Part shown: one piece after another, positions 11,001 to 37,655 of the stretch
Layout of the letters: each line of letters opens with the position of its first letter
How positions within the stretch are numbered: the stretch's first letter is position 1
DNA from: Escherichia coli
GTDB taxonomy: Bacteria > Pseudomonadota > Gammaproteobacteria > Enterobacterales > Enterobacteriaceae
DNA length: 64,000 bases
Strand: one strand, 5' to 3'
Assembly: GCF_013122565.1 (NCBI RefSeq)
Contig: NZ_CP053258.1
The notes under the pieces: generated by a model
The model's input: only the letters and a program-made list of their open reading frames with translations
Told to the model about the DNA's origin: nothing
The model's database searches: none
Translations under genes and position numbers: made by a program

Positions 11001-11329
11001 TGGGACCCCCTTTTGATTTCTTGTTTGACACTTGCAGTTGCCAGACCGCAAGGTGTTTTAACAAATCAAAAGGGGTTTTAATAACTGGCTCAAAGCTGAA
11101 AGCTTTCCGGAACCCCCAGTCTAGCTGGGGGTTTTCTGTGCACAAGAAGAGCCCGTACGAAAGTACGGGCTTTTTTTTCGTATATTGCACACACCGGGTG
11201 CCCCCGCCCACGTCTGTTAGGGCGAGGGGAAATCGTACACATCAACTGTCTGATTGCTCAGTCAACAATCAAAATGCGCAAGAGAGTACAGAACATATAT
11301 GCGCTATCTGGTCACTTCCTGTAACTTCC

Positions 11330-12316
11330 TCACTTATTAAAATGCCCCCAACGGAAATACATGTCACATGCCATCATAAAATCGTTATGCCAGAGGAACC
11401 GACAATGGAAAAAATAGTAAATTAAGCACGGTACATAGCAGAGTAAAAAATAGGCTTCAAACCAAATCCGCCATTCCACAAGCGTTGCCAATACCGACAC
11501 CAGCGTAATCCACATCACTTCAATAACCAGCAATATGAATAACCGAAGCCAAAGCGGCTTGGCAAAAAAGGTCGACAACGCATTTTCACTGGAGAAAAAC
11601 AGATCGATTTCCTGCAAAAAAAGCCTGCCCAGAAAAGCGTACCGCTTGGAGAAGCGCAGAAAAAACAGATTAATCGCCAACACTACGCCACAAAGAATGA
11701 GCAATGCAATTATCGATTTAAACGTTAACCACTGCCCCTCTGTCACAAAAGAGTTACTGTTACGCAACGGGCTGATAGTAAGCAGGTTAACAACCGTTGA
11801 GATACACACCGAAAGCAGCACATAGCGAGTCAGACTTTTATATTTTACTTTTTTCGCTACTGAAATAGCGACCTGCTTGACATAACTGGTGCGGATCATC
11901 CGAAACAACAGAAAGATGACCAACGGCCCAAGTAACGAAATCAGGAACAGCGCATATAACGAGGGTAGAAGCTGGTATAGCCCCCAACTCATTGCACTCA
12001 ACATGATTAACGACAGAAATCCTGCCACCAGAGGTTGTGTAAGAAATAATTCTATTTTGTGGTTCTGCTTTTTCTTAAACCACGAAAAATCGATATTCTT
12101 CGTGACGCATTTATAAGCCCAGTACGCCTTGAGATCAAAAATAAAATTATACAGCACCAGGACCAGAATCCCACTAACTACACCAATATCCTCTGATGGA
12201 AAAGTAAACCCTGCATTTTTCCAATAAAAGCCTATCAGAATAAGTCCAATAGCATAAATGTATATCAGATTTCGTTTATCCTGAAAGCGAATAAAAGTTA
12301 AATAATCAGGAATCAT
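11330..12316 (-). CDS. ycdU: Polytopic inner-membrane protein, 328 aa (YcdU-like), last gene of the 17-gene array
   Basis: Hydrophobic multi-helix ORF; start overlaps stop of upstream FabD-like gene by 4 bp; size matches E. coli YcdU. Confidence 0.55.
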
Positions 12317-13257
12317 TTGAATACCTTCGCATCACTAAATGCTTTACGACAATGCATAACTCGTTGCTGATCCACGCCAGCAAAATCATTTAACATATTC
12401 CCCAAATAGGGCTTATTACTTATTTCAAGGAAAGCTACCGGGGTTGGCATATTCAGAAATGTATCGAGAGATTCAGTCCATTTCACCGTATGAGTTAAGT
12501 GTAATGAGAGATTTTCTTTGATAATTGACGGAGCGACCTCGCTTTTTGCTGTTACGTTCATCAGAACCTGATGCTCTGGCGAAGCGATATCCAGTCCGGC
12601 AAGATAATCGCGCATTGCCTGAACGCCGTCTTCCATCAAACGCGTGTGCCAGGCACCGCTCACACCGAGTTTAACCGGTTCGTACCCAGCGGCCATCAGC
12701 AGCGTGGCAAATTCATTCAACGCAGTCTGCGTTCCCCCAATAACCTGCTGGCGCGGCGTGTTATCACAGCTAATATCCAGCGCAATGCCTGATTCCGTAA
12801 TCATCGTCTGCAGTTGTTCGCGGTTGATGCCTTTAACCGCCAGCATTGCGCCTTTATTTCTCTGGCTTTCGTCATGCATCAGGCTGGCTCTGAAGTGAAT
12901 CATGCCAAATAGCGTCTCAAGAGAAATAGCTCCAGCGGCGTAGAGCGCACTGTATTCACCAACGCTGTGTCCGCAGGAGCCCACAACCGTTAAATTCTCA
13001 AGACGCTCGCGGCACAGGGTATAGAGCGTTACATTAATTGCGGTCACCGCCAGTTGTTGTACCGTCGTTTGAATAAGGCGATTCATCGGCCCTTTCTGAC
13101 ACAGGCGACGCAGGTTCAGTCCGGAAATATCGCTGGCACAATCCCAGATATGTTTTGTACTGGCGTTGAGATCCCAAAGATCGCTGCCCATACCAATAAC
13201 CGGATTACCCTGACCGGCAAAAAGCAGTACTGTCGGTTGTGAAGCATTATTCATCAT
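12313..13257 (-). CDS. Malonyl-CoA:ACP transacylase-like acyltransferase (FabD family)
   Basis: FAGQG N-terminal motif and GHSVGE active-site serine motif. Confidence 0.8.
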
Positions 13258-13267
13258 CTCTTTATCC

Positions 13268-14656
13268 TTATAGATAGTATTTAAAGCCCAAATAAAGGCC
13301 TAACGTGTCGCCAAAAAGCGCAAATTCAGAATACCGACTTCCCAGCGCGCTATAGCCACCGGCATAGGCTTCAAGCTGGTTACTGATAGCGCTGAGCGGC
13401 GTGGAATAATGCAGGCCCAGCAACGTACTGCCATCAATGAGATTGACCACCAGCGAAGGCTGCAGCGTCGACTCTCCCGCCAGCGGCAGACTGGCCCAGG
13501 CGTTCAGATAGTGCTTACCCTGCAGCATCCCCTGATTGGCGGTATTGCTGATTTCTGAAGCCATCAGGTATTTGTAAGAATCAAATGCCTGATCCAGTGG
13601 CGCATAGCCGGTTGTGGTATTGAGGAAGTCAATTAACTCGCGCTGCTGACGCTGTTCAGCGCGCGAATAACCCTCGCTCTGAAAGTAATACTCAACGCCA
13701 AACACGCTGAAATTATCACTGGTGTACTGCCCACCCAGCGCCAGCTCCACGCCGCTTTCATCTTTCGTTTCATAGAGCGAATCCGGAAACTGATATTCCT
13801 CGACCTGCGCCGTCTCACGGTGGGAAAGATGCCGCCATTGCTGGGAGCGGTGGTAGGCTGCGTCGACATTCAGCGTAAGCTGCGGGGTGTAGTGATAACT
13901 GTCAGACAGCGCGAGTGACGGCGATGGTCCGAGCCGCACATTGACTGTCGGCGTGTGCTCACCAAAGCGATGATCGCTGAAGCTCAGCAGATAGGCTTCG
14001 TCGCTGTTTCCCTGCTGATTAGCCGACCAGTTGCCAGACGTCACATAGCGTTTGTCGATGGTGGCTAACTTCGGTATGACACTCGCCGAAAACGCATAAT
14101 CGCGTGTATCCACGCTCATTTTTGCGCCCCACGATGACGCCTGATACGCCGATGTCATTTTGGGATCGTGCAAACGCGTCGACTGGAATCCAGTGTAATA
14201 ATGCGTTTGCAAATCAGAAGGCGAACGCAAAAAGAACATTCCTGACGGCGCGGCAAATTTGCCTGCTTCAAATTGAACGCTGTCCGAGGCACTATAGACC
14301 AGACTGAAGCGGTTAATTAACGCACGCGTGCGGCTATCATCCGTTTCGAATTTCCCTGCAGGTTTAAGCGCATATTCGTTTATTCCATACAGATTGAGCT
14401 TAAGGTCCAGCGTATTGTCGATTATTGAACAACCACTATTGATGCCAATCCCCGCCTCCTGATAACCGTTGTGACGTGTGTAGGGATTTTTGCCTGCAAT
14501 CTGCCAGGCCGAAGCCTGTTTATTGACATAAGACACCTGCTCGTAGAGCGTCACATCGCTGTTTTGTGCCACCTCGTCACCTGACAGGCAATCCGCCTGT
14601 ACCGTCAACGGCAGCGCAACACACAGCAACGAAGAGATCTTCAGCGTGCGTTTCAT
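13268..14656 (-). CDS. Predicted outer-membrane beta-barrel protein, 462 aa
   Basis: Signal peptide MKRTLKISSLLCVALPLTVQA; Gly/Tyr/Ser-rich alternating pattern; function unknown. Confidence 0.45.
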   Translation of the reverse strand: MKRTLKISSLLCVALPLTVQADCLSGDEVAQNSDVTLYEQVSYVNKQASAWQIAGKNPYTRHNGYQEAGIGINSGCSIIDNTLDLKLNLYGINEYALKPAGKFETDDSRTRALINRFSLVYSASDSVQFEAGKFAAPSGMFFLRSPSDLQTHYYTGFQSTRLHDPKMTSAYQASSWGAKMSVDTRDYAFSASVIPKLATIDKRYVTSGNWSANQQGNSDEAYLLSFSDHRFGEHTPTVNVRLGPSPSLALSDSYHYTPQLTLNVDAAYHRSQQWRHLSHRETAQVEEYQFPDSLYETKDESGVELALGGQYTSDNFSVFGVEYYFQSEGYSRAEQRQQRELIDFLNTTTGYAPLDQAFDSYKYLMASEISNTANQGMLQGKHYLNAWASLPLAGESTLQPSLVVNLIDGSTLLGLHYSTPLSAISNQLEAYAGGYSALGSRYSEFALFGDTLGLYLGFKYYL

Positions 14657-15441
14657 TTCGCACCTCGCTGAATATACTCTTTGGTGAAATGAAACTCTGG
14701 CAGCGATTCCAGACGAACATCGCTGTACTCCATCACTGAATAGTTATTGCCGTGACGGACATCGGTAACGGTTATTTTCATGGGTCGCGTTTTCCCCAGC
14801 ACCGGCTGGAAATCCTGATACAACACTTCTTTTATTAACTGGTCATCCTGCGAGTAATAGGCCGCCTTCCACGGGCGATTATCACCGTCTTTTTCAACGT
14901 AATAGATAACCTTCGGCCAGGTGATATCCGCCGATTTACGCACAAGCGCCAGCTTGTAACACTGCTTTTCAGCACAAGAGACTTCCCCCACAAGGGTCGA
15001 GTCATAGGCATATTCAAAGTTAGTGACAATGACATCGCCGTTAGAGATTTGCCCAATTAATCTTTGTTGCCGTGAAATAGGCATCGGACGTCGCAGTTCC
15101 GGCGTGTAAAACCATAAATCGTACCAGTCGGAAAGCATGACTTTTCCTTTATCTCGCGGCGGATAAATAAAACGCACCAGCGAGCGCGCATCCGCTTTTT
15201 CATTACCCAGCGGTTTCATAAAACGCATGGAAATATCGAGGACCTGTTTATTCTCTGGCTGGGTTACGCCCGCTTTATATTCCGTTACCGTCAGCGTGTA
15301 ACGAAACGGTTTATTCGGCGAACGAATTTCGTCAGCGCGACGAATTATATCCAGCGCCTTATTATCTGTGCTCGCCGCCTGAACGCACGACGTAGCGAGC
15401 CACAGGCAAGCAAACCACTTGCCGTAAAAAGCCATATTCAT
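14653..15441 (-). CDS. Secreted LolA-like / lipoprotein-sorting-like protein (tentative), 262 aa
   Basis: Signal peptide; size and context next to FtsX-type permease and OMP; assignment by context and recollection of similar clusters. Confidence 0.4.
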   Translation of the reverse strand: MNMAFYGKWFACLWLATSCVQAASTDNKALDIIRRADEIRSPNKPFRYTLTVTEYKAGVTQPENKQVLDISMRFMKPLGNEKADARSLVRFIYPPRDKGKVMLSDWYDLWFYTPELRRPMPISRQQRLIGQISNGDVIVTNFEYAYDSTLVGEVSCAEKQCYKLALVRKSADITWPKVIYYVEKDGDNRPWKAAYYSQDDQLIKEVLYQDFQPVLGKTRPMKITVTDVRHGNNYSVMEYSDVRLESLPEFHFTKEYIQRGAK

Positions 15442-15449
15442 AATCAGTC

Positions 15450-16760
15450 CTACGAGAATTTAAATGCGTCAGAAATATTCAGCCGGGAAGCACGTAAAGC
15501 CGGTAACACAGAGGCACCTGTTGCTGTCAAAATAGGTAATACCACCGTCACCCAAATCAATTCCGGGTTACTGGTTTTTATAAAGGCGGTATAGCCGATG
15601 GTTTGTCCCGGCGATGGCGGCATCGCAATACCATAAAGATTAATAATCCAGGCTAGCGCCCCCCCCACCAGTAGGCTACCGACTGCGCCAATCACACCAA
15701 TAAAAATGCCTTCCGTCAGAAACAAGCGCGTGACGTGAAGCGGCTTCAGGCCTATGGCACGCAGAGTGGTAATTTCACGGGTGCGTTCAGCAATGTTCAT
15801 TGCCATCGAATTGCTGATCATGAAGATGACAATCAGCGCAACAATCAGCTTGATGAAGAAATAGATCCCCGACAGTAACCCCTCAACCTGTTGATAAAAG
15901 AGTGAAACATCACGCCAGTCTTTGACCACCAGCGGCAAATGATTGCGTTCAATAAACTGACGCAGCTTAGCGCTAAACGCCGCGGTGTCATCCTCTTTTA
16001 GCAGGATAAGCACTTTGCTGACGCCATCCGTACCCATCATGCGCTGCGCGGTGTCCAGCGGGATCTTCATCGCGACATCGTCATAATCTTTAATGCCTGA
16101 CTCAAAAATGCCACGCAGTTTTAGCGACAATGCGCCCTGCCCGCCCGCCGTGTTGACGACCATCACATCCAGCCAGTCGTCATATTTCGCATTCAACGTT
16201 TTCGCCAGACCGCTGCCCAGGGTGATTTCATCACCTTTTACCCGGGAAAGATCGCTCCCCGCGATAATCTTATCGAACGAGCCCAGCTTTAAAGCGGGTA
16301 ACGGCTCCACCCCTAGCGCGGAGAAATAGCTGGAGGTTTCGCTCTCGTAATGTGAAATTACGCCAGTAAACTCCAGTTGCCCGGAGAGCGTGGAAATATC
16401 CGCCGCCAGCGTCGGGTCCGACAAAATAGCTTTCTTTAACGCCGCATAATCGGCAATCAGGCTCTTATTTTTATTCGACGTTTCAAAATAGTGCTGATTG
16501 TAAATCTGTACATGACCAATATTGGTACGAATCGTCTGCTCTTTCAGGATCCAGAAAGAGTAATCAATAAATCCGCCATATAAAAAAATTGCCACGCCAC
16601 CCAATACAATGGCGGTTATAGTAGAAAAAGAGCGACGCTTGTGGCGAAAGAGATTCAAAAATGCAAATTTGACATCTCGTGAATAAAACAGAAGCTGATA
16701 AAACACAAAAAACAGAATCAGCAGCAGAACGCAATTAACAGCTAAAATTTCCCCGGACAT
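15450..16760 (-). CDS. ABC transporter permease, FtsX/MacB/LolCE family (N-terminal TM, large periplasmic domain, C-terminal 3-TM bundle)
   Basis: Topology and C-terminal FtsX-like segment; start codon abuts stop of upstream gene. Confidence 0.65.
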   Translation of the reverse strand: MSGEILAVNCVLLLILFFVFYQLLFYSRDVKFAFLNLFRHKRRSFSTITAIVLGGVAIFLYGGFIDYSFWILKEQTIRTNIGHVQIYNQHYFETSNKNKSLIADYAALKKAILSDPTLAADISTLSGQLEFTGVISHYESETSSYFSALGVEPLPALKLGSFDKIIAGSDLSRVKGDEITLGSGLAKTLNAKYDDWLDVMVVNTAGGQGALSLKLRGIFESGIKDYDDVAMKIPLDTAQRMMGTDGVSKVLILLKEDDTAAFSAKLRQFIERNHLPLVVKDWRDVSLFYQQVEGLLSGIYFFIKLIVALIVIFMISNSMAMNIAERTREITTLRAIGLKPLHVTRLFLTEGIFIGVIGAVGSLLVGGALAWIINLYGIAMPPSPGQTIGYTAFIKTSNPELIWVTVVLPILTATGASVLPALRASRLNISDAFKFS

Positions 16761-17417
16761 TTACTCACCTTTCATCAGCGGCAGCAGTACCTGGGTTAAC
16801 TCTTCACTATCCCATTCTGGTACAACATTAAAATCATGCGTCAGCGACTGCGCTAGCGCGGTGTTTTGCCCTTTAATTTGCGCCAACAACGCATTCGCGC
16901 GGGTGGTGTCCTTGCAGTGACGTAATGCGCGATAACGCATCGCCAGAATATGGTCGCGGATCGTTGTCGTCCATATCGCCGGGTCAGCCAGCATGTGTTC
17001 GGTATCTTTGACTGTCACCACGCAACGCCCTGAATCTGCGGGTAAATAGGCATCTACGCGGGCACGTAAATACCGTACGCGTTGATTTTTCTCCTGCAAA
17101 TCCACCGCTTCATCCAGCCAGAAAAAGCCGCTTTTGGCGTATTCTGAGGCATGGATAAAATCGTTTGTTGCCGCATAACTGTCTGCCTGACGCAGTAAGC
17201 CATAGGCATAAAAAACCAGCGCCACCACATTGTGCCTGGCGTCATACTCTTTCTTTAACGCCTCGGTCAGCATCGCCAGCGCGGCAGGCTGCGCCGGGAG
17301 CCCCTGTTGCAGAACCTGGTTAACGGCGTCGGGTGTTGCCGCGTAAATCTTCGGGGCCAAAAACGCCGCGTACAAAAAGACGCCGATGAGCAAAAATCCT
17401 TTATGCATCTGAGTCAT
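16761..17417 (-). CDS. Secreted hypothetical protein, 218 aa
   Basis: Signal peptide [26 protein letters not shown]; overlaps ABC ATPase gene end. Confidence 0.4.
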   Translation of the reverse strand: MTQMHKGFLLIGVFLYAAFLAPKIYAATPDAVNQVLQQGLPAQPAALAMLTEALKKEYDARHNVVALVFYAYGLLRQADSYAATNDFIHASEYAKSGFFWLDEAVDLQEKNQRVRYLRARVDAYLPADSGRCVVTVKDTEHMLADPAIWTTTIRDHILAMRYRALRHCKDTTRANALLAQIKGQNTALAQSLTHDFNVVPEWDSEELTQVLLPLMKGE

Positions 17418-18108
17418 GAATCAATACTCCATCCTGAATTTCAACCACTCGCCGTGCCCGCGCTTTTAATTCGCTGGAGTGCGTGGAAATAACAAATGTG
17501 GTGCCTGTCTGCTGATTAATCGTCAACAGCAGGTCCAAAATAGCCTCGCCGGTTGACAGGTCTAAATTTCCCGTCGGTTCATCGGCAATGACCACCATCG
17601 GTTCGTGTGCCAGTGCCCGGGCGATGGCGACACGCTGTTGTTGACCGCCCGATAGTTGCCCAGGTTTGCGATCGCCAAAACCGCTTAATCCGACGCTATC
17701 GAGATAATGCAGCGTCCGTTCAGTGGCTTCTTTTTTACTGAACTGGCCATTAAGCACCAATGGGAAATAAACGTTATCGAAAACATTTAATACCGGCATA
17801 AGATTAAAAAACTGAAAAATAAAACCCAGATGTTTTCCACGAATCACAGCTAACTGCTCTTCCGGCAGTTGGTTCAGTAATTTATTTAAAAATATCACCG
17901 TTCCGCTGGTCGGTTTATCAATACCCGAGAGAATATTCAACAGAGTACTTTTACCACTGCCTGATGGCCCACACAGTGCGAGAAATTCGCCTTTATTGAT
18001 ATCAAGATTAATGCTTTTAAGCGCATCAACCTTTCCTGCCCCGGCACCATAACACTTGTAAATGTTGCTAAGCGAAATAGCGGGCAACGATTTAATAGTA
18101 GATTGCAT
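17401..18108 (-). CDS. ABC transporter ATP-binding protein (LolD/MacB-type), ~235 aa from ATG 18108
   Basis: Walker [10 protein letters not shown], signature [15 protein letters not shown], Walker B VVIADEPT; start chosen downstream of the 317-aa gene stop with AGGA upstream. Confidence 0.85.
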
Positions 18109-18118
18109 ACGACTGTCG

Positions 18119-19072
18119 TTATCCTTCAAGGTATTCAAGGTCAAAGTAGTGATAACCAAACTGTTTATCGGCAATGACCGTACGCATTTTTCCACCGGGC
18201 TGAATATGACGGGTTAAATAATCCATACTCAGCGCGGGCGTCAGACAACCGCTTTCTCCGTAATGGGCTACCAGGTCGATAACGCCAGCAGCAGGCCGGG
18301 ACGGCATTTGTCGCCGTTCGCTGAAGGCCATGACATCAATATCCGTAGCATGCTGTGGCGCAGTGCCGGAATGATATTCCCCGCATTGCAGCCTGATGGC
18401 GCTCTCACGCTGGCTGAGAATAAAACAACCCACGCGTTCAACAGATAAATTCACCTCATCAGCACGACGGGGGAATAAACGCTTAGGCGGTTTACCCACA
18501 TCCTCTTCAGAGAATACCAGTACCGGAATTGCCCGATAGGCAGCGCAAATCACCACGTTATCGAATACATCCCAGGCGAGATAATCCTGCGCCATACGCA
18601 GCGCCTGAACGAATGCCTGTTTTTCGCCACGAATTTTGCAAGTCGGCTCAGTTATCGAAAACTTCTTAAGTAAATTCTTGGGAAGCGTATCAATAGTGGC
18701 GATATGCAGCGCACTGGAAATTTTTTCAAACGGACCGGATTCGCCCCAGGAATCGGCATAAATAAATGCCGTGCGCGATTTCATTAACTTCATGCGTTCT
18801 TTAGTCGGCATTTGTTGTAATGCAGAATCGGTCACCTGCTCCATCGCCTCAAGGTAAGGCATATATTGCGGATTACGGATCCGTTCCGGCGCATAAATAT
18901 CGTTCTCAACGCCAAAGCGCTTCAGCCCCCAGCCATTAGCACGGGTGCCATATAATCCTCTTTCGTACATATGTGCTTCCCAGGCGTTGAGCCAGGTCGG
19001 CTGATAAAAATAAAAAATGTCGTCCGGTTCCGTAAGCGCCCAGGAAGACAGGTAGATACTCTTTTCCGTCAT
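18119..19072 (-). CDS. Hypothetical protein, 317 aa, unknown function
   Basis: ORF in operon context, 4-bp overlap with upstream KS gene; no motif recognised. Confidence 0.5.
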   Translation of the reverse strand: MTEKSIYLSSWALTEPDDIFYFYQPTWLNAWEAHMYERGLYGTRANGWGLKRFGVENDIYAPERIRNPQYMPYLEAMEQVTDSALQQMPTKERMKLMKSRTAFIYADSWGESGPFEKISSALHIATIDTLPKNLLKKFSITEPTCKIRGEKQAFVQALRMAQDYLAWDVFDNVVICAAYRAIPVLVFSEEDVGKPPKRLFPRRADEVNLSVERVGCFILSQRESAIRLQCGEYHSGTAPQHATDIDVMAFSERRQMPSRPAAGVIDLVAHYGESGCLTPALSMDYLTRHIQPGGKMRTVIADKQFGYHYFDLEYLEG

Positions 19073-20292: not shown

Positions 20293-20296
20293 AGTC

Positions 20297-22855: not shown

Positions 22856-22928
22856 GAATAATACCTGTCAATCCCGCCTATTGGGGTTAATTTAAGCCGC
22901 GTAAGCTATAGTCACGCGGCGATATTCA

Positions 22929-24089
22929 TTACGCAGCGCTTTTATTTTTTGACGCGTCGATATAACTGTGCTCAGTTGGGCTAACCAACATGCTCAGGTT
23001 ATAAATAAACGGCATACATTTTGATTGCGCCGGAATAATTCCGTGAGCAGTTTGAATTTCGTAGCCGCTGATGTCAGACCAGGCGTAATCATTATCCAGC
23101 AGAGTCAGGGCAATGAAACGCTGCAACGCTGGGGAAAAGAGTGCCTTCACGATATAGCCCACGTCTTGACCTTCCACCAGCACACGATCGCCAGCCTCAA
23201 TGCCTTCGCATTCTTCCTGAGCGATCATGCCGATGAGTTTATTACCGGTATACTCCTGGGAGAGCTCTGTCACCGCGTCCTTGCCAATAAAATCATCTTT
23301 GTCGTACTGCACCGCCCACTGCATCTGCAACTGAACCGGATTCACTGCCTGACCTTCCCAGAGGCTGGCATCCCAGCACGGATTTTCGAGGCGTACGATT
23401 TTTTGATAATCCAGGCCGCCGGTCTGCATCAGGTATTTCTCGCCGACGGTTAACAGTTTTTCCCACTGCTCCGCCAGTTTCGCCTGCTCACCGATGGTCA
23501 TGTACGCATACTCACCGTGTTTACCACAGCGGAAGATCAGCAGATCCTCCTCGGTATTCATGTATTCGTAGTAAGGCAGGCCAATAACGTCAAAGCCATG
23601 AATTTCAGACATGATCTCCCAGGAGTATGGGCCTTCGAGCAGGATTGCCCCCCAGTTGTTTTCCCGCATATCCTGAATTTCAGGCATCGATTGAATATCC
23701 AGTTCTTCCGCTTTTTCGAGAATGGTATTCATGCTGGCGATCAATTCGGCAGCCGAAATATCTTCTGAAAGCAGGTAATAACCGTCAATGCTGCACAGCA
23801 CATAGACGTCTCCGCGAATGGTGCCCTCTTCATTCAACACCAGTGAGTAGATTGCCTGCTCATCACGAATGATGGAGACATCTGCGGAAACCAGCTGGTT
23901 GATCAGCGCCCAGGCATCATCGCCCATGACGCTAACAATAGAGAGGTGAGAATAGTCCACCAGCAGCGCGTTTTCACGAACGGCTTTATATTCGGTCATA
24001 GCATCGTGATAAGAAGAAGGTAGGGTACGGTTGTTATATACCCCCATTACCGCATTATTTTTCAAGTGAAATTCAGCAAGAGATTTCAT
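22929..24089 (-). CDS. GcvT-like aminomethyltransferase-family (folate-binding) protein, 386 aa
   Basis: Overall resemblance to glycine-cleavage T family N-terminus; assignment tentative. Confidence 0.5.
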   Translation of the reverse strand: MKSLAEFHLKNNAVMGVYNNRTLPSSYHDAMTEYKAVRENALLVDYSHLSIVSVMGDDAWALINQLVSADVSIIRDEQAIYSLVLNEEGTIRGDVYVLCSIDGYYLLSEDISAAELIASMNTILEKAEELDIQSMPEIQDMRENNWGAILLEGPYSWEIMSEIHGFDVIGLPYYEYMNTEEDLLIFRCGKHGEYAYMTIGEQAKLAEQWEKLLTVGEKYLMQTGGLDYQKIVRLENPCWDASLWEGQAVNPVQLQMQWAVQYDKDDFIGKDAVTELSQEYTGNKLIGMIAQEECEGIEAGDRVLVEGQDVGYIVKALFSPALQRFIALTLLDNDYAWSDISGYEIQTAHGIIPAQSKCMPFIYNLSMLVSPTEHSYIDASKNKSAA

Positions 24090-24124
24090 AAACGTGTCCT
24101 GATAATTAATTCTTTAATAAGTAG

Positions 24125-24406
24125 TTAATCGTTGTTCTTTTGAATAACGAAGGTGGCCAGACTATTGATACTGCGCATATAGGACGGGTCGTCACTTTCG
24201 CTGATCTTGATATCAAATACTTTATCCAGCAGAACGACAATTTCCGTTGCATCGACGGAGTCCAGTTTAAAACCATTACCAAACAGCGCAGTATCATCAT
24301 CAATTTGCGCTTCATCGCGTTGAATATTCAGTCGCTGGATGATCTCAGTTTTAATGGTCATCAGAACTTCTTTACGCTGTTCAATAGCGTCATTCATGGT
24401 AGACAT
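24125..24406 (-). CDS. Acyl carrier protein
   Basis: FKLDSVDATEIVVLLD phosphopantetheine-attachment motif; small acidic protein. Confidence 0.75.
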   Translation of the reverse strand: MSTMNDAIEQRKEVLMTIKTEIIQRLNIQRDEAQIDDDTALFGNGFKLDSVDATEIVVLLDKVFDIKISESDDPSYMRSINSLATFVIQKNND

Positions 24407-24427
24407 AATATTTACTCTCTTATTGGA

Positions 24428-24976
24428 TTACTTGGTTTCACGGAAATTGATAATGGTGCCCTGACTAATCAGCTTTTTACCGACGTACGCGGTCACGGAA
24501 TAGTGTTTAAAGCCACTGGCATCCGAAAAAGCCAATTTGCTGACAACATCAATAGAATCACCCGGATAGGCGATATCTTTAAATTTCAGGTTCTGAGCAG
24601 CCAGCACGCCGCGTACCTGGCTGCGCCGGGTACGGATAATCTCCAGCATTTCAGGGCGGTGAATGCGTGCGTGAATATCACGTAACGACTTCAGCTCTTC
24701 CTCAAAACGTTCGCGCCAGATATCGCAAATGTCGGTCAGGAAAGAGAGATACTCGCTGGCCTGGCCGAAGATTTCCGAAATAATCACCCCGGGCATAATC
24801 GGATCTTCCGGGAAATGCCCCAGTAGATACGGTTCGTTATAGGTGACGTGCTTCACGACACTGACAAAGCCATTTTCACCGTATTTATAATCTGCAATTT
24901 TATCGACCATCAGCAGCGGCTGACGCCAGCCGCCCATTTCGAGGAAGATTTTCGAAGGAATCGTGTATTTGGACAT
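24428..24976 (-). CDS. FabA/FabZ-like hot-dog beta-hydroxyacyl-ACP dehydratase
   Basis: HFPEDPIMPGVIISEIFGQA matches the FabZ catalytic His region. Confidence 0.65.
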   Translation of the reverse strand: MSKYTIPSKIFLEMGGWRQPLLMVDKIADYKYGENGFVSVVKHVTYNEPYLLGHFPEDPIMPGVIISEIFGQASEYLSFLTDICDIWRERFEEELKSLRDIHARIHRPEMLEIIRTRRSQVRGVLAAQNLKFKDIAYPGDSIDVVSKLAFSDASGFKHYSVTAYVGKKLISQGTIINFRETK

Positions 24977-24979
24977 AAA

Positions 24980-25744
24980 TCACCGCATGACCAGGCCGCC
25001 ATCGATAACGATGGTCTGGCCGACAATGTAGCTGGAGGCAGAGGAACTTAAGAAGACGATGGTGTTCGCCACTTCTTCACATTTACCCAGACGGCGTAAC
25101 GGGATGGTACTGGTTACCGCACGGACCACTGCGCGGGATACTTTTTTCACCATTTTCGATTCAATCATTCCCGGTGCGACCGCGTTGACGCGCACGCCCC
25201 AGGGTGCCATTTCTGCTGCCAGCGTGCGGGTGAAGCCTAGGATCGCCCCTTTTGACGCGCTGTAATTCGCCTGACCGACGCTTGGGATCAGCGCTGCAAT
25301 AGAGGCAACGTTAATAATGGCGGGATTTTCTGCCGCACGAAGCAACATCAGCGCGTCTTTCGTCAGACGGAAAATGCTGAACATGTTGGTTTCGATAACT
25401 TGGGTGAAATCCTCATAGCTCATCGAGGCAAACAGGCTGTCTTTAACGATGCCCGCGTTATTCACCAGCACATCAATCTTGCCAGCTTCGCGCTCTATCT
25501 GTTCGCACAATGCGCTCACACTCTGGGGGCAGGCGAGATCGCACTGCACAATATGCAGTTTATCGCCTGCAGGATGGCTTGCTTTCAGCGCCGTTAATTG
25601 CACGTCGTTGGATTTATAGAGCGCATAAACATCGCAGTTCTGCTCCAGATATTTTTCACAAATACCCAGTCCAATATCACCACTGGCTCCTGTCACCAGT
25701 ACGGTTTTTTCATTTAAATCATTATATTTGTACATATTCATCAT
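24980..25744 (-). CDS. 3-oxoacyl-ACP reductase-like SDR (FabG family)
   Basis: TVLVTGASGDIG Rossmann motif, NNAG, YSASK catalytic Tyr-Lys; start set at internal Met to avoid overlap with PPTase. Confidence 0.85.
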   Translation of the reverse strand: MMNMYKYNDLNEKTVLVTGASGDIGLGICEKYLEQNCDVYALYKSNDVQLTALKASHPAGDKLHIVQCDLACPQSVSALCEQIEREAGKIDVLVNNAGIVKDSLFASMSYEDFTQVIETNMFSIFRLTKDALMLLRAAENPAIINVASIAALIPSVGQANYSASKGAILGFTRTLAAEMAPWGVRVNAVAPGMIESKMVKKVSRAVVRAVTSTIPLRRLGKCEEVANTIVFLSSSASSYIVGQTIVIDGGLVMR

Positions 25745-25754
25745 ATATGTTGAG

Positions 25755-26123
25755 TTAATAAACGATGACAGTCGCAATGGCGTGGGTACGGCAATGCGAA
25801 ATACTCAGGGAGTTATTTTGCAACCCCTGCCCGAGAAAAATTTCTTGTAGTCTTCCGGAAATAACGAAATAAGGTGCTTTGGCCGCATCATGCTTTATTT
25901 CAATATCCTGGAAACGTACGCCATCACGAAAACCACAACCAATCGCTTTAACTAACGCTTCTTTCGCCGCCCAGAATCCAGAGGCCCGTTCATAATCAGG
26001 TTCTGCAGGATTAATGAGTAAGCGCTCATGAGCAGTATAAACACGCTCATAAAAAGCCATCTCTCCATTAATAATGGCTTTGGTTATTCTGGCAATTTCA
26101 ACAATATCTGTTCCTATTCTCAT
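25755..26123 (-). CDS. AcpS-type 4'-phosphopantetheinyl transferase (holo-ACP synthase)
   Basis: [14 protein letters not shown]-terminus and [11 protein letters not shown], both AcpS-like; 15 nt after tpsB stop with AAGGA SD. Confidence 0.8.
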
Positions 26124-26138
26124 TAGTCTCGTTATCCT

Positions 26139-27758
26139 TTACATTTGGTACGAAAAATTAAAATTTATATTCACCCGATCAATATCTAATGTCGCCGGGT
26201 ACTTTAATGGGGTAGAAACGGAAAAGTTATACTCAAGACTTTTTATGTTTCCATCAATACCAACTGCCGCGCCCACCAGTGATTCATCGCCATAAGAAGC
26301 GTCCTGATACACTTGCCCAAAATCAAGACCGGCATAATAATTAGCTTTCATTCCAGGCAAAGGAAATGCCAGCGTATTTTTTATATAAAAACCATCATTC
26401 CCTGACAAACCTACGCTATTTTCAAACCCGCGAATACTCCAACGATCGCCAACTGTAATTTGATCTTGCAAAGTCAGTTCACACGGTGCGTACTGGGCAA
26501 AAAAAGCGGTATTGTAATATCCATTATCTATTTGTCGGGTATAGTTACCCTCAAAATTAAAGATATTGCTTACCGGGCTAACGTCGCCATATTGCATATT
26601 CGGCGTTTTTTCACCACCGAACCAAGTTAAAAAGCGTTGCCACGAGAGGGTTGAATCCCAGAACGCGCCGGGTAACTGTTGCTTATAATTTAGCCCCAGC
26701 TTGATATTTCCCATATCCCGCGCCTGTAATGTCAGCTCCTCACCATTAAGCGTGTAATTCGACTTTCGTCGAATGAGTTCTGCACTCCCGGCGAATTTTT
26801 TTGTTTTATCGCGATAAACGGTACGCGTCGCCTTTGCGCTCAAGTATTCGCTGGTGCCAACATAATCCAGCGAGATGTACGAAAGCGGAATCACCTGCTG
26901 CGATTTACTTTTGCTATAGAAAAAGCCGTACTCCCAGTACCCCACCGGAATGGAATAATAGCTACTGACGTTTTCGTACTGTCCAGTAGTACTACGCGTA
27001 CCGGCGAGATAAAACAGATCCCCCATTTTCGCTGGATTAAACAGATAACCCACCGCGGTTGTCTGGTAACGGCCCGTTTCTTCATCGCCCCAATTGTTGT
27101 AACTTGCCCGAACGCTCCAGTTTTTGCCCCGGTGTGTATCAATATGAACGATGCTGTAACCATCCCGTGTTCCCGGTTCAATATTAATTTTCACATCAAC
27201 GTCAGGTACTCGCTGAAGATTTTCCAGCCCCTGTTCAATATCGCGAATATTGAGAATATCGTTACGCTGAAAAGGTAACATCCATTCACTGATATCATTA
27301 CCTTCCACAATCGTTTTTTCTATCTTCCCGGCATTAACCTGGAAACGTAGCTTGCCTTTAGAAATATCCTGCGAAGGGATACTAATTCGCGTTGTGATAT
27401 ATCCGGCATTAATATAATAATCCTGCAAGGCAGCAGCAATTTTTTGCACACCAGCACTACCGACACAACGTCCGGCAATCGCTTTTTGCACTTCAGAAAT
27501 AAACTGACCATCCAGAAAGTTATCTTCCAGTTCAATCCGATTAATGATAAAGCAATTCTTTTCCTGCGGTAGATCACTCAGAGTAAACGCATTACGTTGT
27601 GCATTTGAGTAAACATCTTTTTTTTCTAATTTATGCGCGCGTAACGTGCTTTCATCTGCATTTTTTTGCTGCTTGATCAAATTATCAATACTGTCTTTCG
27701 CTGCAACCTGAAAACAACAAAGAATGAGCAGCAAACCAAAATTAAATCGTAATTGCAT
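26139..27758 (-). CDS. TpsB outer-membrane transporter (ShlB/FhaC/HecB family)
   Basis: Signal peptide, POTRA-region length, loop-6 SIRGFE (VRGY/F) motif. Confidence 0.8.
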   Translation of the reverse strand: MQLRFNFGLLLILCCFQVAAKDSIDNLIKQQKNADESTLRAHKLEKKDVYSNAQRNAFTLSDLPQEKNCFIINRIELEDNFLDGQFISEVQKAIAGRCVGSAGVQKIAAALQDYYINAGYITTRISIPSQDISKGKLRFQVNAGKIEKTIVEGNDISEWMLPFQRNDILNIRDIEQGLENLQRVPDVDVKINIEPGTRDGYSIVHIDTHRGKNWSVRASYNNWGDEETGRYQTTAVGYLFNPAKMGDLFYLAGTRSTTGQYENVSSYYSIPVGYWEYGFFYSKSKSQQVIPLSYISLDYVGTSEYLSAKATRTVYRDKTKKFAGSAELIRRKSNYTLNGEELTLQARDMGNIKLGLNYKQQLPGAFWDSTLSWQRFLTWFGGEKTPNMQYGDVSPVSNIFNFEGNYTRQIDNGYYNTAFFAQYAPCELTLQDQITVGDRWSIRGFENSVGLSGNDGFYIKNTLAFPLPGMKANYYAGLDFGQVYQDASYGDESLVGAAVGIDGNIKSLEYNFSVSTPLKYPATLDIDRVNINFNFSYQM

Positions 27759-27846
27759 TATCTTCTCAAACTAAATAAAGACAGCAGCAACCCCTGCGTG
27801 ACATGACGCATTAATATTAAATGCCACTGCTGTCTTTGGTTACATC

Positions 27847-30800
27847 TTACATGCCGACAATAGTACCGGTGTTGTCAGTTTCGTTTGCTTCTAACGCTAA
27901 ACCGTAGAAGCCACCGAGAACAGCGTCTTTACCGCTATTCGTAACCTTATTTGCCGATACGCCAGCGACACCATAACTCAGCATATTGAGGTAGTTATAA
28001 ATATTACCGGTGGTTTTAACACCCAGAGAATAATCACCCACAATATTTCCACGGTTATTAATGTCATTCACGGCATTGATCGCGATGGTTTGTCCCAACA
28101 TATTACTGTTGCTGTTGTTGGTAACATACTTCTGCGTATCAATAGTCAGCGCAGTTCCCGCCACAATGTCTTTAAAGTTCTCAACACCGTTCAGGGCATT
28201 AATGGTCAGCGCGTTGTCCGCTGCGATGGCATTACGGTTATACAGCGTGCCTTTCAGAACATTGAAATGCACATCCCCTTTACCGCTGATCCAACCATAG
28301 TTAGTGACGCTGTTATCAACGTTCAGATCTAGGTTTTTGTCAGACGCAATCACGCCCGTGGCGGTATTGTCTTCCAGACGACCATCACTGGCGTTACTCA
28401 ACGACGCCGCATAAACATCGAGATTACCGGCGCTGTAAGTGGTGGCATAGTTGTTGTAGAACATACCAGCCGCACGGATGATGGCATCAGCCCCACTGCT
28501 AAGAAGCGCGCGGGTATTATCCAGCGTTCCCCTGGACAGCAGATTAAGCGGACCATTTTCAGCGATGATGCTGCTGTTATTGTTGTAGACGTTCTGAGCA
28601 GAAAGCGTGACACCTTCTTTACCCACAATGCCACCAACGTTGTCAGTAATACCGAAAACTTCACCGTTATAACGCAGGAAGTTATTCCCGTCGCGGTTTT
28701 CGAGGTTGCCGCCAGCGTTAATAACCAGCTTTTTATTCGCCGCGATCAGCGCAGTGTTGTTGTAAATCGTCGATTTAGCATCGACAGAAACATTCTCACC
28801 GGCAATCAAACCATAGGCGTTGTCTACAATGTTCGCCGTCAGAGTCACGTCGCCCGTTTCAGAGGTCAGCGAGCCCTTAAAACTGTCGTAGTTGCCCGTC
28901 AGTGCCAGCGTGACGTCGTCATAACCACGAATTTCACCGTAGTCGTTGTTCAGATTGCTGCCTTTTACAGACAACACGCCGTTCAACGCATGCAGCTTAC
29001 CGCGGTTGTTACCCACGTTGCCCTTCGAATCGATAATCAGATCGCCTGTCGCTTCGATGGTCGCGTTATTGTTGGCCACGCTATTTGCCGTTAATGCGAC
29101 ATCCCCATAACCCACCATATAGAGATAGTTATACAGGTTGCCTTTGGTTGTCACGTTCAGGTCAACATCACTGACAATGTTGCCACGGTTGTTGATATCG
29201 TTAACCGCGTTAATAACGATATTCTGCCCCACCATATTGCTGTTGGAGTTGTTGGTCACATGGCGATTGGTGTTCATCGTCAGGTCGCCGCCAGCAGAAA
29301 TATCCTTCCAGTTTTCAATACCGTTCAGTGCTGCAATGTCCAACCCCTTTTCAGCCGCAATAGTATTGCGGTTGTACAGGTTGCCATTTTTCACCGTGAC
29401 ATCAACATCACCTTTACCGCTGATCCAGCCGTAGTTGGTAAGGCTATTCACCACTTCCAGTGACAGATTTTTGTCAGATGCAATGAACCCGGTCGCATTG
29501 TTATCGATCATCGTACCGCTGCTGCTGTTTTGCAGCGTGGTCGCGTCGATATCCAGGTTGCCCGCACTCCAGGTGGTAGCGTAGTTGTTGTAATACGTTC
29601 CGCCAACCTGAATAGATGCATCCGCCCCGCTGATGACCAGAGCTCGCGTGTTGTCGAACGTGTTCTGCGCCTGCAGAGTCAGAGGACCATCCTCAGCGAT
29701 AATACGGCTGTTGTTGTTATAGATGTTCTGCCCGGAAAGCTCGATGCCTTCCTTGCCGACCATTCCACCCGTTTGCTGAGGCATGCCGAAGTACTGACCA
29801 TAAGCATTACCGAAGTTATTGCCATCGCGGTTTTCGATACTGCCGCGCGCATTTATCTTCAGTTTTTTGCTGGCCACGATCAGCGCTGTGTTGTTATTGA
29901 CGCCAGACATCGACTCCATCGTGATGTTCTGCCCCATCATGAAGCCGCCGTGGTTATCCACGGAGTTGGCTAACAGGGAGATATCACCCTCTTCAGAGCT
30001 GATCACGCCAATATTATTGGTCAGGCTGCCGCCAACGGCGACTTCAATACCCTGCTTACCGCTGATCCCCCCGGTATCGTTACGCAGAGAGCTTCCCTTG
30101 ATAATCACTTTGCTGTTGGACAGAATTTTGCCCGCATAGTCGTCGATCGTGCTGTAACTTGACAGGGAGACGTTGCCATTAGACGCAATCTGTCCGCCAT
30201 TGTTATTGATGTTGTTCGCACCAATTTCTACGCCGGTATCTGCAATAATGCCCAGAGAGTCAGAACTGCCGGTATCGGCGGTTTTGGTTGAACCATTATT
30301 TACGCTACCTGCCGCACCAATAACGATATGCCCGGTGGACGAACGGATCAGACCTTTGTTGTTATCCACATTACCGTTACTGATAATGGCGATATCGCCA
30401 GTGGTCTGGATATCACCGCTGTTGTTATTCAACGCGCCTGATTCAAGCCCCACATAACCGCCGCGAATCTGACCATTGCTGTTGTTGAGCGTTCCGGTTT
30501 TCAGCGCCACGAGCCCCGCTTCAATCCCGACAGAACTCCCTTTACCAGAGTTAATCAGCGTGGCGTTATTGGTATCAACCGCCAGCATACCTGCTGCGGC
30601 GAGCTTGCCGTTGGTGTTATCAATCGTGCCACTGTTAACGTAGATATCGCCCATCGTAGAGATGTTACCCGCACGGGTATTCACGATAGTATTCTTGTTG
30701 GTATTAAGCGAGATAGTGCCTACAGATGTCACCGTACCGGTGGTGTTATCCAGAGTACCATTTGTTGTCAGGTTGATCGTGCTTGCAGACTGAATCTGGG

Positions 30801-31659
30801 CGTTACTGTTTAACAGGTTACCTTTGGAATCGATGCTGACACCATTAACCCCCCCAGCAATAACGCCGAGGTTGCGAACCCCCACACCTTTCTCGGTGCT
30901 GACCAGACTGATTTTGTTCGCATACATTCCGCCCAGTTTGGCAACATCTACGCTGTAACCGTTACGGGACCCCGTGGCGGATACGCTACCGGTCACCTGG
31001 CCTGCGGCATTAACATAGTTATTGCCAGCAACAACGTTCAGCTCATCGGCAGACACTTTGCCGTTAACTACCACGTTACGGGACAGAATTTCTGTCGGGC
31101 TGGCGTTATCCAGTTTACCGAGCGTAATGGTACCGCCGTTCACGGAGTAACCGGCCAGCTTGTCATCCTGGATATCCGGCGTCCCGGTGGTTAAGGTAAG
31201 TTTACCTGTATTGATTGAACCGCCACCGTTTACAGTAATACCATTCGGGTTGGCAATAATCAGATCCGCTTTATCCCCTGCAACTTCCATCATCCCATTA
31301 ATGGTTGAAGGATTTTTGGAAGTAACCTCATTCAGGATCACCTTCGCCGACCCGGAGGTCAGATTACTGTTTCCCTGAATATTTCCGGCAAGTGAAGTAC
31401 TGGATTCATTAGCGCTGTTATTGAAAACGACACCATTTTTATCAACGTTTAGGTTATCCCAGATATTATGAGATAAACCGCTACCGTTAGGTTTGTTGAT
31501 GTCAACGACTGGCACACCATTGGCGTTATATACCGTTCCATTTTTTATGACTAATCCCGCCGCTTGAGAAGCTACAGGAAAAGACAACATCATAAGTATA
31601 GCAATAGGGGTTAATGCTTTACCCACCGTTGCTTCCTTACTTAAATTTATCATCGCCAC
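27847..31659 (-). CDS. TpsA exoprotein (filamentous haemagglutinin/haemolysin-like), 1270 aa, with internal tandem duplication
   Basis: N-terminal TPS domain with ANPNGI motif; Asn/Gly/Thr-rich beta-helix repeats; no recognisable C-terminal toxin domain. Confidence 0.85.
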   Translation of the reverse strand: MAMINLSKEATVGKALTPIAILMMLSFPVASQAAGLVIKNGTVYNANGVPVVDINKPNGSGLSHNIWDNLNVDKNGVVFNNSANESSTSLAGNIQGNSNLTSGSAKVILNEVTSKNPSTINGMMEVAGDKADLIIANPNGITVNGGGSINTGKLTLTTGTPDIQDDKLAGYSVNGGTITLGKLDNASPTEILSRNVVVNGKVSADELNVVAGNNYVNAAGQVTGSVSATGSRNGYSVDVAKLGGMYANKISLVSTEKGVGVRNLGVIAGGVNGVSIDSKGNLLNSNAQIQSASTINLTTNGTLDNTTGTVTSVGTISLNTNKNTIVNTRAGNISTMGDIYVNSGTIDNTNGKLAAAGMLAVDTNNATLINSGKGSSVGIEAGLVALKTGTLNNSNGQIRGGYVGLESGALNNNSGDIQTTGDIAIISNGNVDNNKGLIRSSTGHIVIGAAGSVNNGSTKTADTGSSDSLGIIADTGVEIGANNINNNGGQIASNGNVSLSSYSTIDDYAGKILSNSKVIIKGSSLRNDTGGISGKQGIEVAVGGSLTNNIGVISSEEGDISLLANSVDNHGGFMMGQNITMESMSGVNNNTALIVASKKLKINARGSIENRDGNNFGNAYGQYFGMPQQTGGMVGKEGIELSGQNIYNNNSRIIAEDGPLTLQAQNTFDNTRALVISGADASIQVGGTYYNNYATTWSAGNLDIDATTLQNSSSGTMIDNNATGFIASDKNLSLEVVNSLTNYGWISGKGDVDVTVKNGNLYNRNTIAAEKGLDIAALNGIENWKDISAGGDLTMNTNRHVTNNSNSNMVGQNIVINAVNDINNRGNIVSDVDLNVTTKGNLYNYLYMVGYGDVALTANSVANNNATIEATGDLIIDSKGNVGNNRGKLHALNGVLSVKGSNLNNDYGEIRGYDDVTLALTGNYDSFKGSLTSETGDVTLTANIVDNAYGLIAGENVSVDAKSTIYNNTALIAANKKLVINAGGNLENRDGNNFLRYNGEVFGITDNVGGIVGKEGVTLSAQNVYNNNSSIIAENGPLNLLSRGTLDNTRALLSSGADAIIRAAGMFYNNYATTYSAGNLDVYAASLSNASDGRLEDNTATGVIASDKNLDLNVDNSVTNYGWISGKGDVHFNVLKGTLYNRNAIAADNALTINALNGVENFKDIVAGTALTIDTQKYVTNNSNSNMLGQTIAINAVNDINNRGNIVGDYSLGVKTTGNIYNYLNMLSYGVAGVSANKVTNSGKDAVLGGFYGLALEANETDNTGTIVGM
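27972..30240. repeat. Two tandem ~1134-bp repeat units inside tpsA (approximate bounds)
   Basis: Antisense ORFs at 28061-28300 and 29138-29434 end in the same SPLPLIQP peptide 1134 bp apart; corresponding TpsA segments (~370 aa each) align with high identity. Confidence 0.7.
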
Positions 31660-31922: not shown

Positions 31923-31973
31923 GGATGTCTGAAATGATATGTAGTTTTCTGTACGACATCATTTCAGACATCC
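31923..31973. repeat. Perfect 16-bp inverted repeat ggatgtctgaaatgat / atcatttcagacatcc, 19-nt spacer
   Basis: Read directly; ~265-315 bp upstream of tpsA start within a 1.4-kb AT-rich intergenic region. Confidence 0.9.
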
Positions 31974-33675: not shown

Positions 33676-33717
33676 TTAACTCGTTCTATATTAACTCTAA
33701 ATTTCAAGGATATTAAT

Positions 33718-34278: not shown

Positions 34279-34342
34279 TTAATCTACTGGCTGGCAGTAA
34301 ATGTCAGCCAGTATTTCTTTGCACAATTAATAGTGATTTTTC

Positions 34343-37640: not shown

Positions 37641-37655
37641 TACAGAGAAAACCCG

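Follow-up and report, generated by a model that had tools for sequence, protein, structure and literature searches.

Two-partner secretion genes kept beside a putative type II lipid synthesis and export cluster in Escherichia coli and other bacteria

In a window of 64,000 nucleotides of Escherichia coli DNA (the whole stretch analyzed; NCBI RefSeq assembly GCF_013122565.1, contig NZ_CP053258.1), seventeen genes between positions 11330 and 31659 join a two-partner secretion (TPS) pair, the exoprotein TpsA and its transporter TpsB, to a type II pathway resembling fatty acid synthases (FAS) and polyketide synthases (PKS) and to a MacB/Lol-like exporter. These genes recur in the same order in about 27 other species with differing flanking genes, and for this reason the arrangement is not a product of chance. 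The conservation described below supports a tie between the TPS and lipid genes that would be more than physical. Whether the locus makes a dedicated, partly reduced lipid that reaches the envelope by export and cooperates with TpsA, as two coupled halves of one system, is in our estimate evenly balanced.

Gene order, lineages and the position of the TPS genes

The seventeen genes were confirmed as co-directional on the minus strand, from tpsA (27847-31659) to ycdU (11330-12316), at the positions given in the original prediction. Every label proposed there was checked: the "unknown" 317-aa product was refined to a thiolase-fold protein, the supposed outer-membrane protein stays putative, and the others were borne out. 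Start codons were taken as the RefSeq starts of E. coli PapRG-04-4 (99.9% identical), which is how the ketoreductase and second ketosynthase starts were set. Membership in FAS, Lol, GcvT and cispentacin (Amc) families was judged by NCBIfam-type equivalog cut-offs. The features are as follows.

27847..31659, minus strand: tpsA, TPS exoprotein of 1270 aa (signal peptide, TPS domain, beta-helix)
27777..27837, minus strand: terminator-like or attenuator hairpin directly after the tpsA stop, found by folding
26139..27758, minus strand: tpsB, Omp85-family transporter (Pfam ShlB 5e-69, POTRA_2 1e-15, POTRA_3 2e-13)
25755..26123, minus strand: AcpS-type phosphopantetheinyl transferase (PPTase; TIGR00516, 79.6 bits against a cut-off of 59.8)
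24980..25741, minus strand: FabG-like ketoreductase (KR) of the short-chain dehydrogenase/reductase (SDR) type (TIGR01830, 238 bits, below the cut-off of 298)
24428..24976, minus strand: FabZ/ApeI-like dehydratase (DH; FabZ models at 72-74 bits, under cut-off; fabZ 72 against 155)
24125..24406, minus strand: dedicated acyl carrier protein (ACP; PRK09184, 43 bits; ACP models under cut-off)
22929..24089, minus strand: GcvT-like aminomethyltransferase-family protein, folate-type (PRK00389, 136 bits against a cut-off of 300)
20297..22855, minus strand: fusion of a ketosynthase (KS) with a chain-length factor (CLF), 852 aa (fabF, 454 bits on residues 6-398, cut-off 494)
19069..20292, minus strand: second ketosynthase (KS2), 407 aa from the ATG at 20292 (weak KS models, active-site alignment)
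18119..19072, minus strand: degenerate thiolase-fold protein, 317 aa (AlphaFold2 model and Foldseek)
17401..18108, minus strand: LolD/MacB-type ATP-binding cassette (ABC) ATPase (TIGR02211, 228 bits, below the cut-off of 308)
16761..17417, minus strand: 218-aa exported helical protein (signal peptide; two invariant Cys in the alignment)
15450..16760, minus strand: MacB_PCD/FtsX permease, type VII ABC (lolCE, 91 bits, below the cut-off of 362)
14653..15441, minus strand: LolA-like (TP_0789-like) periplasmic protein (Pfam PF17131, 3.2e-36)
13268..14656, minus strand: 462-aa exported protein, putative outer-membrane component (signal peptide in the sequence)
12313..13254, minus strand: FabD-like malonyl acyltransferase (AT; TIGR00128, 177 bits, below the cut-off of 261)
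11330..12316, minus strand: ycdU, polytopic inner-membrane protein of a cluster-confined family

From ycdU to tpsA the junctions measure -4, 13, -4, 8, 0, -17, 10, -4, 4, 73, 35, 21, 3, 13, 15 and 88 nt. The spacing is thus as tight as had been claimed (0-88 bp with 4-bp overlaps), with an actual range of -17 to 88 nt and three 4-nt overlaps. The widest junction is the one between tpsA and tpsB. The predicted distance of 15 nt from the tpsB stop to the PPTase ATG, with AGGA in between, was also found. A consensus scan of the minus-strand gaps from tpsB to ycdU returned no convincing intrinsic terminator, and we infer from the sequence that tpsB to ycdU form a single translationally coupled operon.

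The position of tpsA is different. Directly after its stop codon lies a hairpin with a 15-bp outer stem (AAAGACAGCAGUGGC / GUUGCUGCUGUCUUU), preceded by an A-run and followed by a U-rich tail. A simple terminator scan missed it because the loop is long, and folding detected it. A scan of 30 loci showed an equivalent hairpin, of another sequence each time, in 28, and folding 14 loci one by one showed it in every case, the Proteus group included. These hairpins have 9-17 bp and are often shaped like intrinsic terminators; the two loci without one are explained by a disrupted tpsA and by an artefact of the stop-codon finder. As a control, the 73-nt gap between the GcvT-like and KS-CLF genes carries a hairpin in some loci only, and none is consistent. 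The conserved hairpin makes a single operon from tpsA to ycdU doubtful, and tpsA is probably a separately attenuated unit, like the major-subunit genes of pilus operons. A terminator between the TPS and lipid genes had been named as a possible objection to their coupling; the terminator-like hairpin after tpsA bears this out in part, but tpsB remains tightly joined to the PPTase gene.

Upstream of tpsA, a perfect 16-bp inverted repeat (GGATGTCTGAAATGAT, 19-nt spacer) was observed at 31923-31973, about 265 nt before the tpsA start. It sits in a 1.4-kb AT-rich intergenic region (35% GC) and was seen in E. coli only among the loci fetched. An Rfam search of 9-34 kb gave the IS200 RNA STnc490 as its only match, and no riboswitch or leader upstream of tpsA.

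Of about 100,000 species-representative genomes, 39 carry the KS-CLF fusion, as do further assemblies. When all 17 proteins were compared with 46 loci in a tblastn matrix, three lineages (A, B and C) were distinguished, about equally distant from one another at 56-60% KS-CLF identity. Type A (72-100% identity) has all 17 genes in one order in unrelated chromosomal neighborhoods. It includes E. coli, Kosakonia, Enterobacter, Klebsiella aerogenes and K. oxytoca, Izhakiella, Silvania, Buttiauxella, Leclercia, Mixta, Pantoea, Rahnella, Serratia sp. Ag1, Tenebrionibacter, Acinetobacter sp. ANC 4558 and Neisseria sp. Ec49. The cluster is flanked by yajQ/yajR in K. aerogenes, by cobW/yaeQ in Acinetobacter, and by yet another context in Neisseria. 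Type B comprises Proteus, Morganella and Providencia (KS-CLF 55-58% identical), and its TpsA gene (30% identity) lies directly upstream of the PPTase gene. An apparent TpsA-PPTase fusion in Providencia was rejected as an ORF-extension artefact. Type C, found in Serratia rubidaea, S. fonticola, S. silvae and others, Cedecea, Entomohabitans and Erwinia, keeps the LolA-like and 462-aa genes and has an extra SDR and a gene of about 245 aa. Two distant metagenomic clusters (L047 and L049) have the biosynthetic core, including the GcvT-like gene, and no TPS genes. The shared core consists of the PPTase, KR, DH, ACP, GcvT-like protein, KS-CLF, KS2 with its partner, and AT, to which the ABC pump and a YcdU-like protein are usually added. 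The cluster may be described as a mobile yet long-conserved module.

Within this distribution, TpsA and TpsB occupy the same position in about 25 species with unrelated flanks. The place of tpsA is fixed across types A and B, and that of tpsB in type A. In four genera, 15-23 nt lie between tpsB and the PPTase gene, and in two Kosakonia species tpsA is gone while tpsB is still joined to the lipid genes. The best match of the Proteus TpsA outside its own clade is a type-A cluster TpsA (343 bits), which is itself 66% identical over its full length to the E. coli TpsA; generic TpsAs score below 180 bits. This search used a word index, which remoter relatives may escape. As the TpsAs of types A and B are mutual closest relatives, they appear to have co-diverged with the cluster. 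The survey of co-occurrence across genomes thus upheld the proposed association in about 25 species and in a Proteus lineage about 56% identical. The coupling itself was supported in part: adjacency is conserved across species and lineages, but the single operon from tpsA to ycdU is doubtful and TPS-free clusters exist. Since the lipid pathway occurs without a TPS gene, TPS is an accessory of one branch and not part of the core.

Serratia fonticola (loci L050 and L051) presents a separate case. An orphan 843-aa TpsA of the cluster type (L050, 10001-12532) has no TpsB or lipid genes nearby, and another assembly of the species carries the TPS-less type C lipid cluster. This hints at a TpsA-lipid partnership in trans.

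Predicted functions of the gene products

The TPS pair has the sequence features of type Vb secretion, with a TPS domain following a signal peptide in TpsA and, in the adjoining TpsB, two POTRA domains and a ShlB barrel. The TPS domain of TpsA scores 77 bits on TIGR01901 (cut-off 29.1), an NPNGI-type motif (ANPNGI) is visible in the alignment, and among known structures the protein matches FHA (1RWR, E 8e-36), the matches to FHA 1RWR and HpmA 4W8Q ranging from E 1e-33 to 1e-36. TpsA is predicted to be secreted through TpsB. BLAST against orthologues also revealed an internal tandem duplication of about 380 aa in TpsA, residues ~470-850 being repeated at ~850-1230. It is common to E. coli and Enterobacter soli (1290 aa) and missing in the 847-892-aa orthologues of other genera. 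A Mixta mediterraneensis locus (L032) shows signs of decay, as tpsA seems to stop prematurely and an insertion of about 1.2 kb precedes the LolA-like gene.

The own ACP and PPTase, the type II FAS/PKS-like enzymes and the MacB/Lol-like exporter support the view, already held in the original prediction, of a self-contained pathway. Among the housekeeping type II FAS models, fabF, fabD, fabG and fabZ all stay below their cut-offs at the scores listed above, and only AcpS passes. KR, DH, ACP, AT and KS are therefore better regarded as specialized paralogues than as housekeeping FAS enzymes. Orthologues of the dehydratase have Pfam FabA and weak ApeI-like matches. Family-model searches of the 17 ORFs returned no adenylation enzyme, ammonia-lyase, thioesterase, enoyl reductase or MMPL protein.

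The KS-CLF protein was recognized as a fusion because the active-site columns of its N-terminal half hold Cys, His and His, whereas its C-terminal half has none of the three. KS2 retains the Cys, the first His and the Lys, but in all lineages a Tyr occupies the position of the second His. The 317-aa protein encoded next to it has no Pfam or PDB match by sequence. Its AlphaFold2 model (pLDDT 85, pTM 0.88) has a thiolase fold, and Foldseek relates it to KS, OleA, ChlB3, DpsC and CerJ at E ~1e-11. Of the four unannotated proteins of the cluster, for which Pfam, NCBIfam and PDB searches by sequence returned no significant match, it is the one that a predicted structure resolved. The family is rare: its profile gathered only 57 representatives among 1.84 billion proteins, of which two (P0263 and P0283) are fusions of about 780 aa with KS2. 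From the fold and these fusions, the 317-aa protein is likely the degenerate, CLF-like partner of KS2, which would give the pathway two pairs of KS/CLF type. The metagenomic locus L047 (6282-8636) encodes KS2 and the thiolase-fold partner as one protein of 784 aa, with the PPTase gene at the far end of its operon.

The GcvT-like gene is present in every locus and is thus a core member of all cluster types. Its product aligns over the full length with the T-protein 1WOO (E 2.5e-24) and keeps the catalytic Asp. Its scores stay below the equivalog level (for TIGR00528, 99 against a cut-off of 236), and no H- or P-protein gene was found beside it in the cluster. We know of no precedent for folate-dependent one-carbon chemistry on an ACP-bound chain.

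On the export side, FtsX, LolCE and MacB models all match the E. coli permease, and an 82%-identical Kosakonia orthologue carries Pfam MacB_PCD and FtsX, which together place it among the MacB-type (type VII) ABC permeases. The gene for the 218-aa protein, which has no Pfam or PDB match by sequence, is always placed between those of the ATPase and the permease. No NCBIfam LolA model matches the LolA-like carrier. The 462-aa gene, whose product likewise lacks a Pfam or PDB match by sequence, always follows the LolA-like gene, and both are lost together in the Proteus group. On one K. aerogenes contig (L003, 18206-19595) the 462-aa gene is broken into two ORFs (185 and 222 aa), a sign of decay.

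YcdU belongs to a family of only 121 homologue clusters, all from cluster-bearing taxa and with no Pfam entry. Its AlphaFold2 model (pLDDT 86) is all-helical and polytopic. It has no fold match among solved structures in the PDB (best E 0.5), and its relatives in AFDB are uncharacterized proteins only. The equivalent gene of the distant locus L047 is related to YcdU with an hhalign probability of 96%, and no link to YcdU was obtained for the 356-aa membrane protein of L049.

Setting in O-island 47 and neighboring elements

The stretch 11330-31659 is 99.9% identical to E. coli PapRG-04-4 and 98.3% identical to O157:H7. It represents one half, the TPS/lipid half, of E. coli O-island 47 (OI-47; z1528-z1556, 31.7 kb), an island noted for the regulator GrvA and placed between ycdU and dgcT(ycdT)-pgaABCD. 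The locus is therefore already annotated as part of OI-47 and is not new at that level. The literature found on OI-47 deals with grvA and the distribution of the island, together with one paper on ymdE-ycdU and a citation of a thesis; the thesis, known to us through that citation, has Z1542 (tpsA) as its topic.

Among 5,426 complete E. coli genomes, 379 contain the whole 20-kb stretch. Another 2,290 or so, K-12 included, retain only query positions 1-1327 or 1-1512, which correspond to ycdU and the 3' stump of the FabD-like gene. In K-12 this stump is the pseudogene ymdE, cut off by IS3 (PMC4951805). With only ycdU and the FabD-like 3' end left in K-12, ymdE and ycdU are best explained as relics of the seventeen-gene array. 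As for plasmids, most matches labeled as such proved to be chromosomes wrongly labeled, and carriage looks genuine only on a 322-kb plasmid of Enterobacter bugandensis and on a Rahnella megaplasmid.

Just downstream of ycdU lies an IS200 element (10542-11171), made up of tnpA (10542-11051), the Hfq-binding RNA STnc490 (11010-11133, 141 bits) and a GC-rich hairpin of 9 bp (11150-11171). Beyond it are a tyrosine integrase (9160-10251) and phage or defense remnants. On the other side, a chaperone-usher fimbrial operon (33052-39680, plus strand) is divergent from tpsA. The same fimbrial genes stand beside the cluster in Kosakonia radicincitans, and the shared block thus exceeds the 17 genes.

The window also contains a GrvA-family regulator, a ToxR-like winged helix-turn-helix protein, at 41292-42104 (plus strand), and a partner of about 160 aa at 42109-42600 (plus strand). 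In two Kosakonia species and a Buttiauxella metagenome-assembled genome, a GrvA-like gene and its partner lie directly upstream of the cluster and divergent from it (L018, 3050-4388; L019, 3058-4387; L016, 4-1063), with 26-28% identity to the corresponding E. coli proteins (E 6e-33 and 8e-18). Given this pair beside the cluster in other genera, GrvA may be the cognate regulator of the TPS-lipid module.

Possible roles of the lipid and TpsA

A working scheme can be drawn from the gene contents. The AcpS-type PPTase would activate the dedicated ACP, onto which the FabD-like AT would load malonate. The KS-CLF fusion would then prime and elongate a chain that the FabG-like KR and the FabZ/ApeI-like DH would process. 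Since type A encodes neither enoyl reductase nor thioesterase, a hydroxylated and/or unsaturated chain is probable, and it would be released by transfer instead of hydrolysis. KS2 (Cys-His-Tyr) with its partner, or alternatively YcdU, are candidates for priming the chain or handing it to a membrane acceptor, and the GcvT-like enzyme probably adds or removes a one-carbon unit in a folate-dependent manner. The MacB-type pump (ATPase, permease and 218-aa periplasmic protein) could pull the lipid from the inner membrane, and the LolA-like carrier could ferry it over the periplasm to the 462-aa outer component. The gene order, with tpsA first and the hairpin next, should raise tpsA abundance above that of the remaining genes. 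The short beta-helical TpsA would be secreted via TpsB, with the lipid serving as its cofactor, anchor or covalent modification. Most likely, on this genomic evidence, the lipid and TpsA act together at the cell surface.

Several observations weigh against such cooperation. The conserved terminator-like hairpin parts tpsA from all downstream genes. Type B has no TpsB, LolA-like or 462-aa genes despite having TpsA, which misfits a model in which both products go to the surface, and TPS genes are missing from type C and from the distant clusters. The outer-membrane assignment of the 462-aa protein is putative only, as its signal peptide comes without a family match, and no acyltransferase of a known protein-lipidating family was found in the cluster. 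Finally, our literature search, with most subscription journals outside its coverage, returned nothing published on the product, on the lipid genes or on the conserved TPS-lipid coupling.

Some known systems offer partial precedents. HMW1A/B/C of Haemophilus and EtpBAC of enterotoxigenic E. coli are TPS operons with a dedicated enzyme that tailors TpsA. As in the present locus, TpsA and TpsB are encoded with extra genes; in those operons the extra product acts on the exoprotein. However, it is a single cytoplasmic glycosyltransferase there, whereas here the extra part is a 14-gene set for lipid synthesis and export, and modification of TpsA is hypothetical. ShlA, whose activity needs a phospholipid cofactor, is a precedent for a lipid-requiring TpsA, and the TPS domain of the cluster TpsA matches HpmA structures (E ~1e-33). 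ShlA and HpmA differ in having about 1,600 aa, a B-A gene order and bulk membrane phosphatidylethanolamine, whereas the cluster TpsA has ancestrally about 850 aa, an A-B order and a tie to a private lipid pathway.

Regarding transport, the heterocyst glycolipid system of cyanobacteria likewise pairs a PKS/FAS-like envelope lipid with a MacB-family pump (DevBCA-TolC), and the cluster ATPase scores 187 bits on DevA. The cluster has no DevB membrane-fusion protein or TolC and carries the LolA-like carrier and the 462-aa protein instead; moreover, heterocyst synthases are type I and not type II, and phylum and cell biology differ. The ABC ATPase, FtsX/MacB-type permease and periplasmic LolA-fold carrier also resemble LolCDE-LolA-LolB, a set of parts that suggests a hydrophobic cargo taken from the inner membrane and shuttled to the outer membrane. 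Unlike LolCDE, the cluster has one permease gene, a PF17131 carrier in place of LolA proper, and a cargo that is presumably its own lipid; its proteins also score far from lipoprotein-release membership (LolD 228 against 308, lolCE 91 against 362). A match to a characterized family had been named as a possible refutation of the proposal, and APE (aryl polyene), FAS, LolCDE and cispentacin models all stayed below threshold. By these comparisons the locus appears to belong to none of the families and to combine known kinds.

One alternative views the TPS pair as an ordinary cassette for an adhesin or cytolysin that co-travels with the lipid genes in an island, with no interaction between TpsA and the lipid. 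Lipid clusters without TPS genes, the terminator-like hairpin after tpsA and the same-family orphan TpsA standing alone in S. fonticola would all be expected in that case, and OI-47 also holds fimbrial and regulatory genes. However, mere co-travel accounts poorly for an adjacency that is kept in unrelated contexts and across two lineages about 56% identical, for TpsAs that are mutual closest relatives between those lineages, and for a tpsB that lies 15-23 nt from the PPTase gene and stays when tpsA is lost. We consider it unlikely, but by no means far-fetched.

The product could instead be a diffusible secondary metabolite (a polyene acid, a cispentacin-like compound or another cyclized product), with the ABC proteins as a pump for self-protection or export. 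There is weak similarity to three Amc models (AmcF, AmcB, AmcE) and to DarD, the ATPase of the darobactin exporter, no glycerolipid-type acyltransferase was recognizable, and the variant locus L049 has no exporter. Yet all Amc scores fall far under their cut-offs (AmcF 246 against 325, AmcB 29.8 against 80, AmcE 28 against 140), the N-terminal half of the KS-CLF protein is closest to FabF (454 bits), a carrier of LolA-like type for hydrophobic cargo and a downstream exported protein stand beside the pump in two of the three lineages, and YcdU is a cluster-specific polytopic membrane protein. On balance a diffusible product is improbable. A divergent APE pigment cluster is hardly credible. APE clusters are reportedly present in Gram-negatives such as E. 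coli CFT073 and Xenorhabdus. The present cluster shares with them a stand-alone type II PKS/FAS-like logic (KS with an inactive CLF-like partner, KR, DH, own ACP and no enoyl reductase), LolA-like envelope-export genes, a wide horizontal spread and the weak ApeI-like Pfam matches of its dehydratase orthologues. The KS, inactive CLF, KR and DH set without enoyl reductase is common to many type II systems, however, and is insufficient for membership. The claim that this is not an APE locus held: APE models stayed under cut-off, and the 17 ORFs include no aryl-activating or adenylating starter enzyme, ammonia-lyase, thioesterase, methyltransferase, lysophospholipid-type acyltransferase or MMPL/RND pump, and one ACP where APE clusters have two. 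The LolA-like protein is of the PF17131 family, and the GcvT-like enzyme and ABC exporter stand in place of APE parts, beside a KS-CLF fusion, KS2 with its partner, YcdU and the TPS pair, which the cluster has in addition.

Returning to cooperation between the lipid and TpsA, a bolder version would make this a previously unrecognized class of TPS system, in which a dedicated PKS-like pathway supplies the lipid of the exoprotein, either attached covalently or tightly bound as a cofactor or anchor, TpsB and the LolA-like route are two arms of one surface-assembly machine, and YcdU is its K-12 relic. This version is rather doubtful, and we put it forward tentatively.

Cooperation between the lipid and TpsA, if real, would make this the first TPS system equipped with a lipid supply of its own, with a bearing on adhesion, cytolysis and envelope biology. 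The proposal comes from genomic inference; the coupling is conserved across genera, and the protein-lipid hypothesis is both testable and unusual. That a GcvT-like enzyme stands within a type II PKS-like line suggests that a chain bound to the ACP may undergo folate-dependent one-carbon chemistry. Four uncharacterized families are found essentially only here, namely those of YcdU, the thiolase-fold partner and the 218-aa and 462-aa proteins. Two orphan genes of K-12 gain a concrete origin, ymdE as the stump of an acyltransferase gene and ycdU as the last gene of the operon. The module resides in the signature island of E. coli O157:H7, O55:H7 and O145:H28, and its presence in Klebsiella aerogenes, Klebsiella oxytoca, the Enterobacter cloacae complex and Proteus mirabilis makes it clinically widespread.

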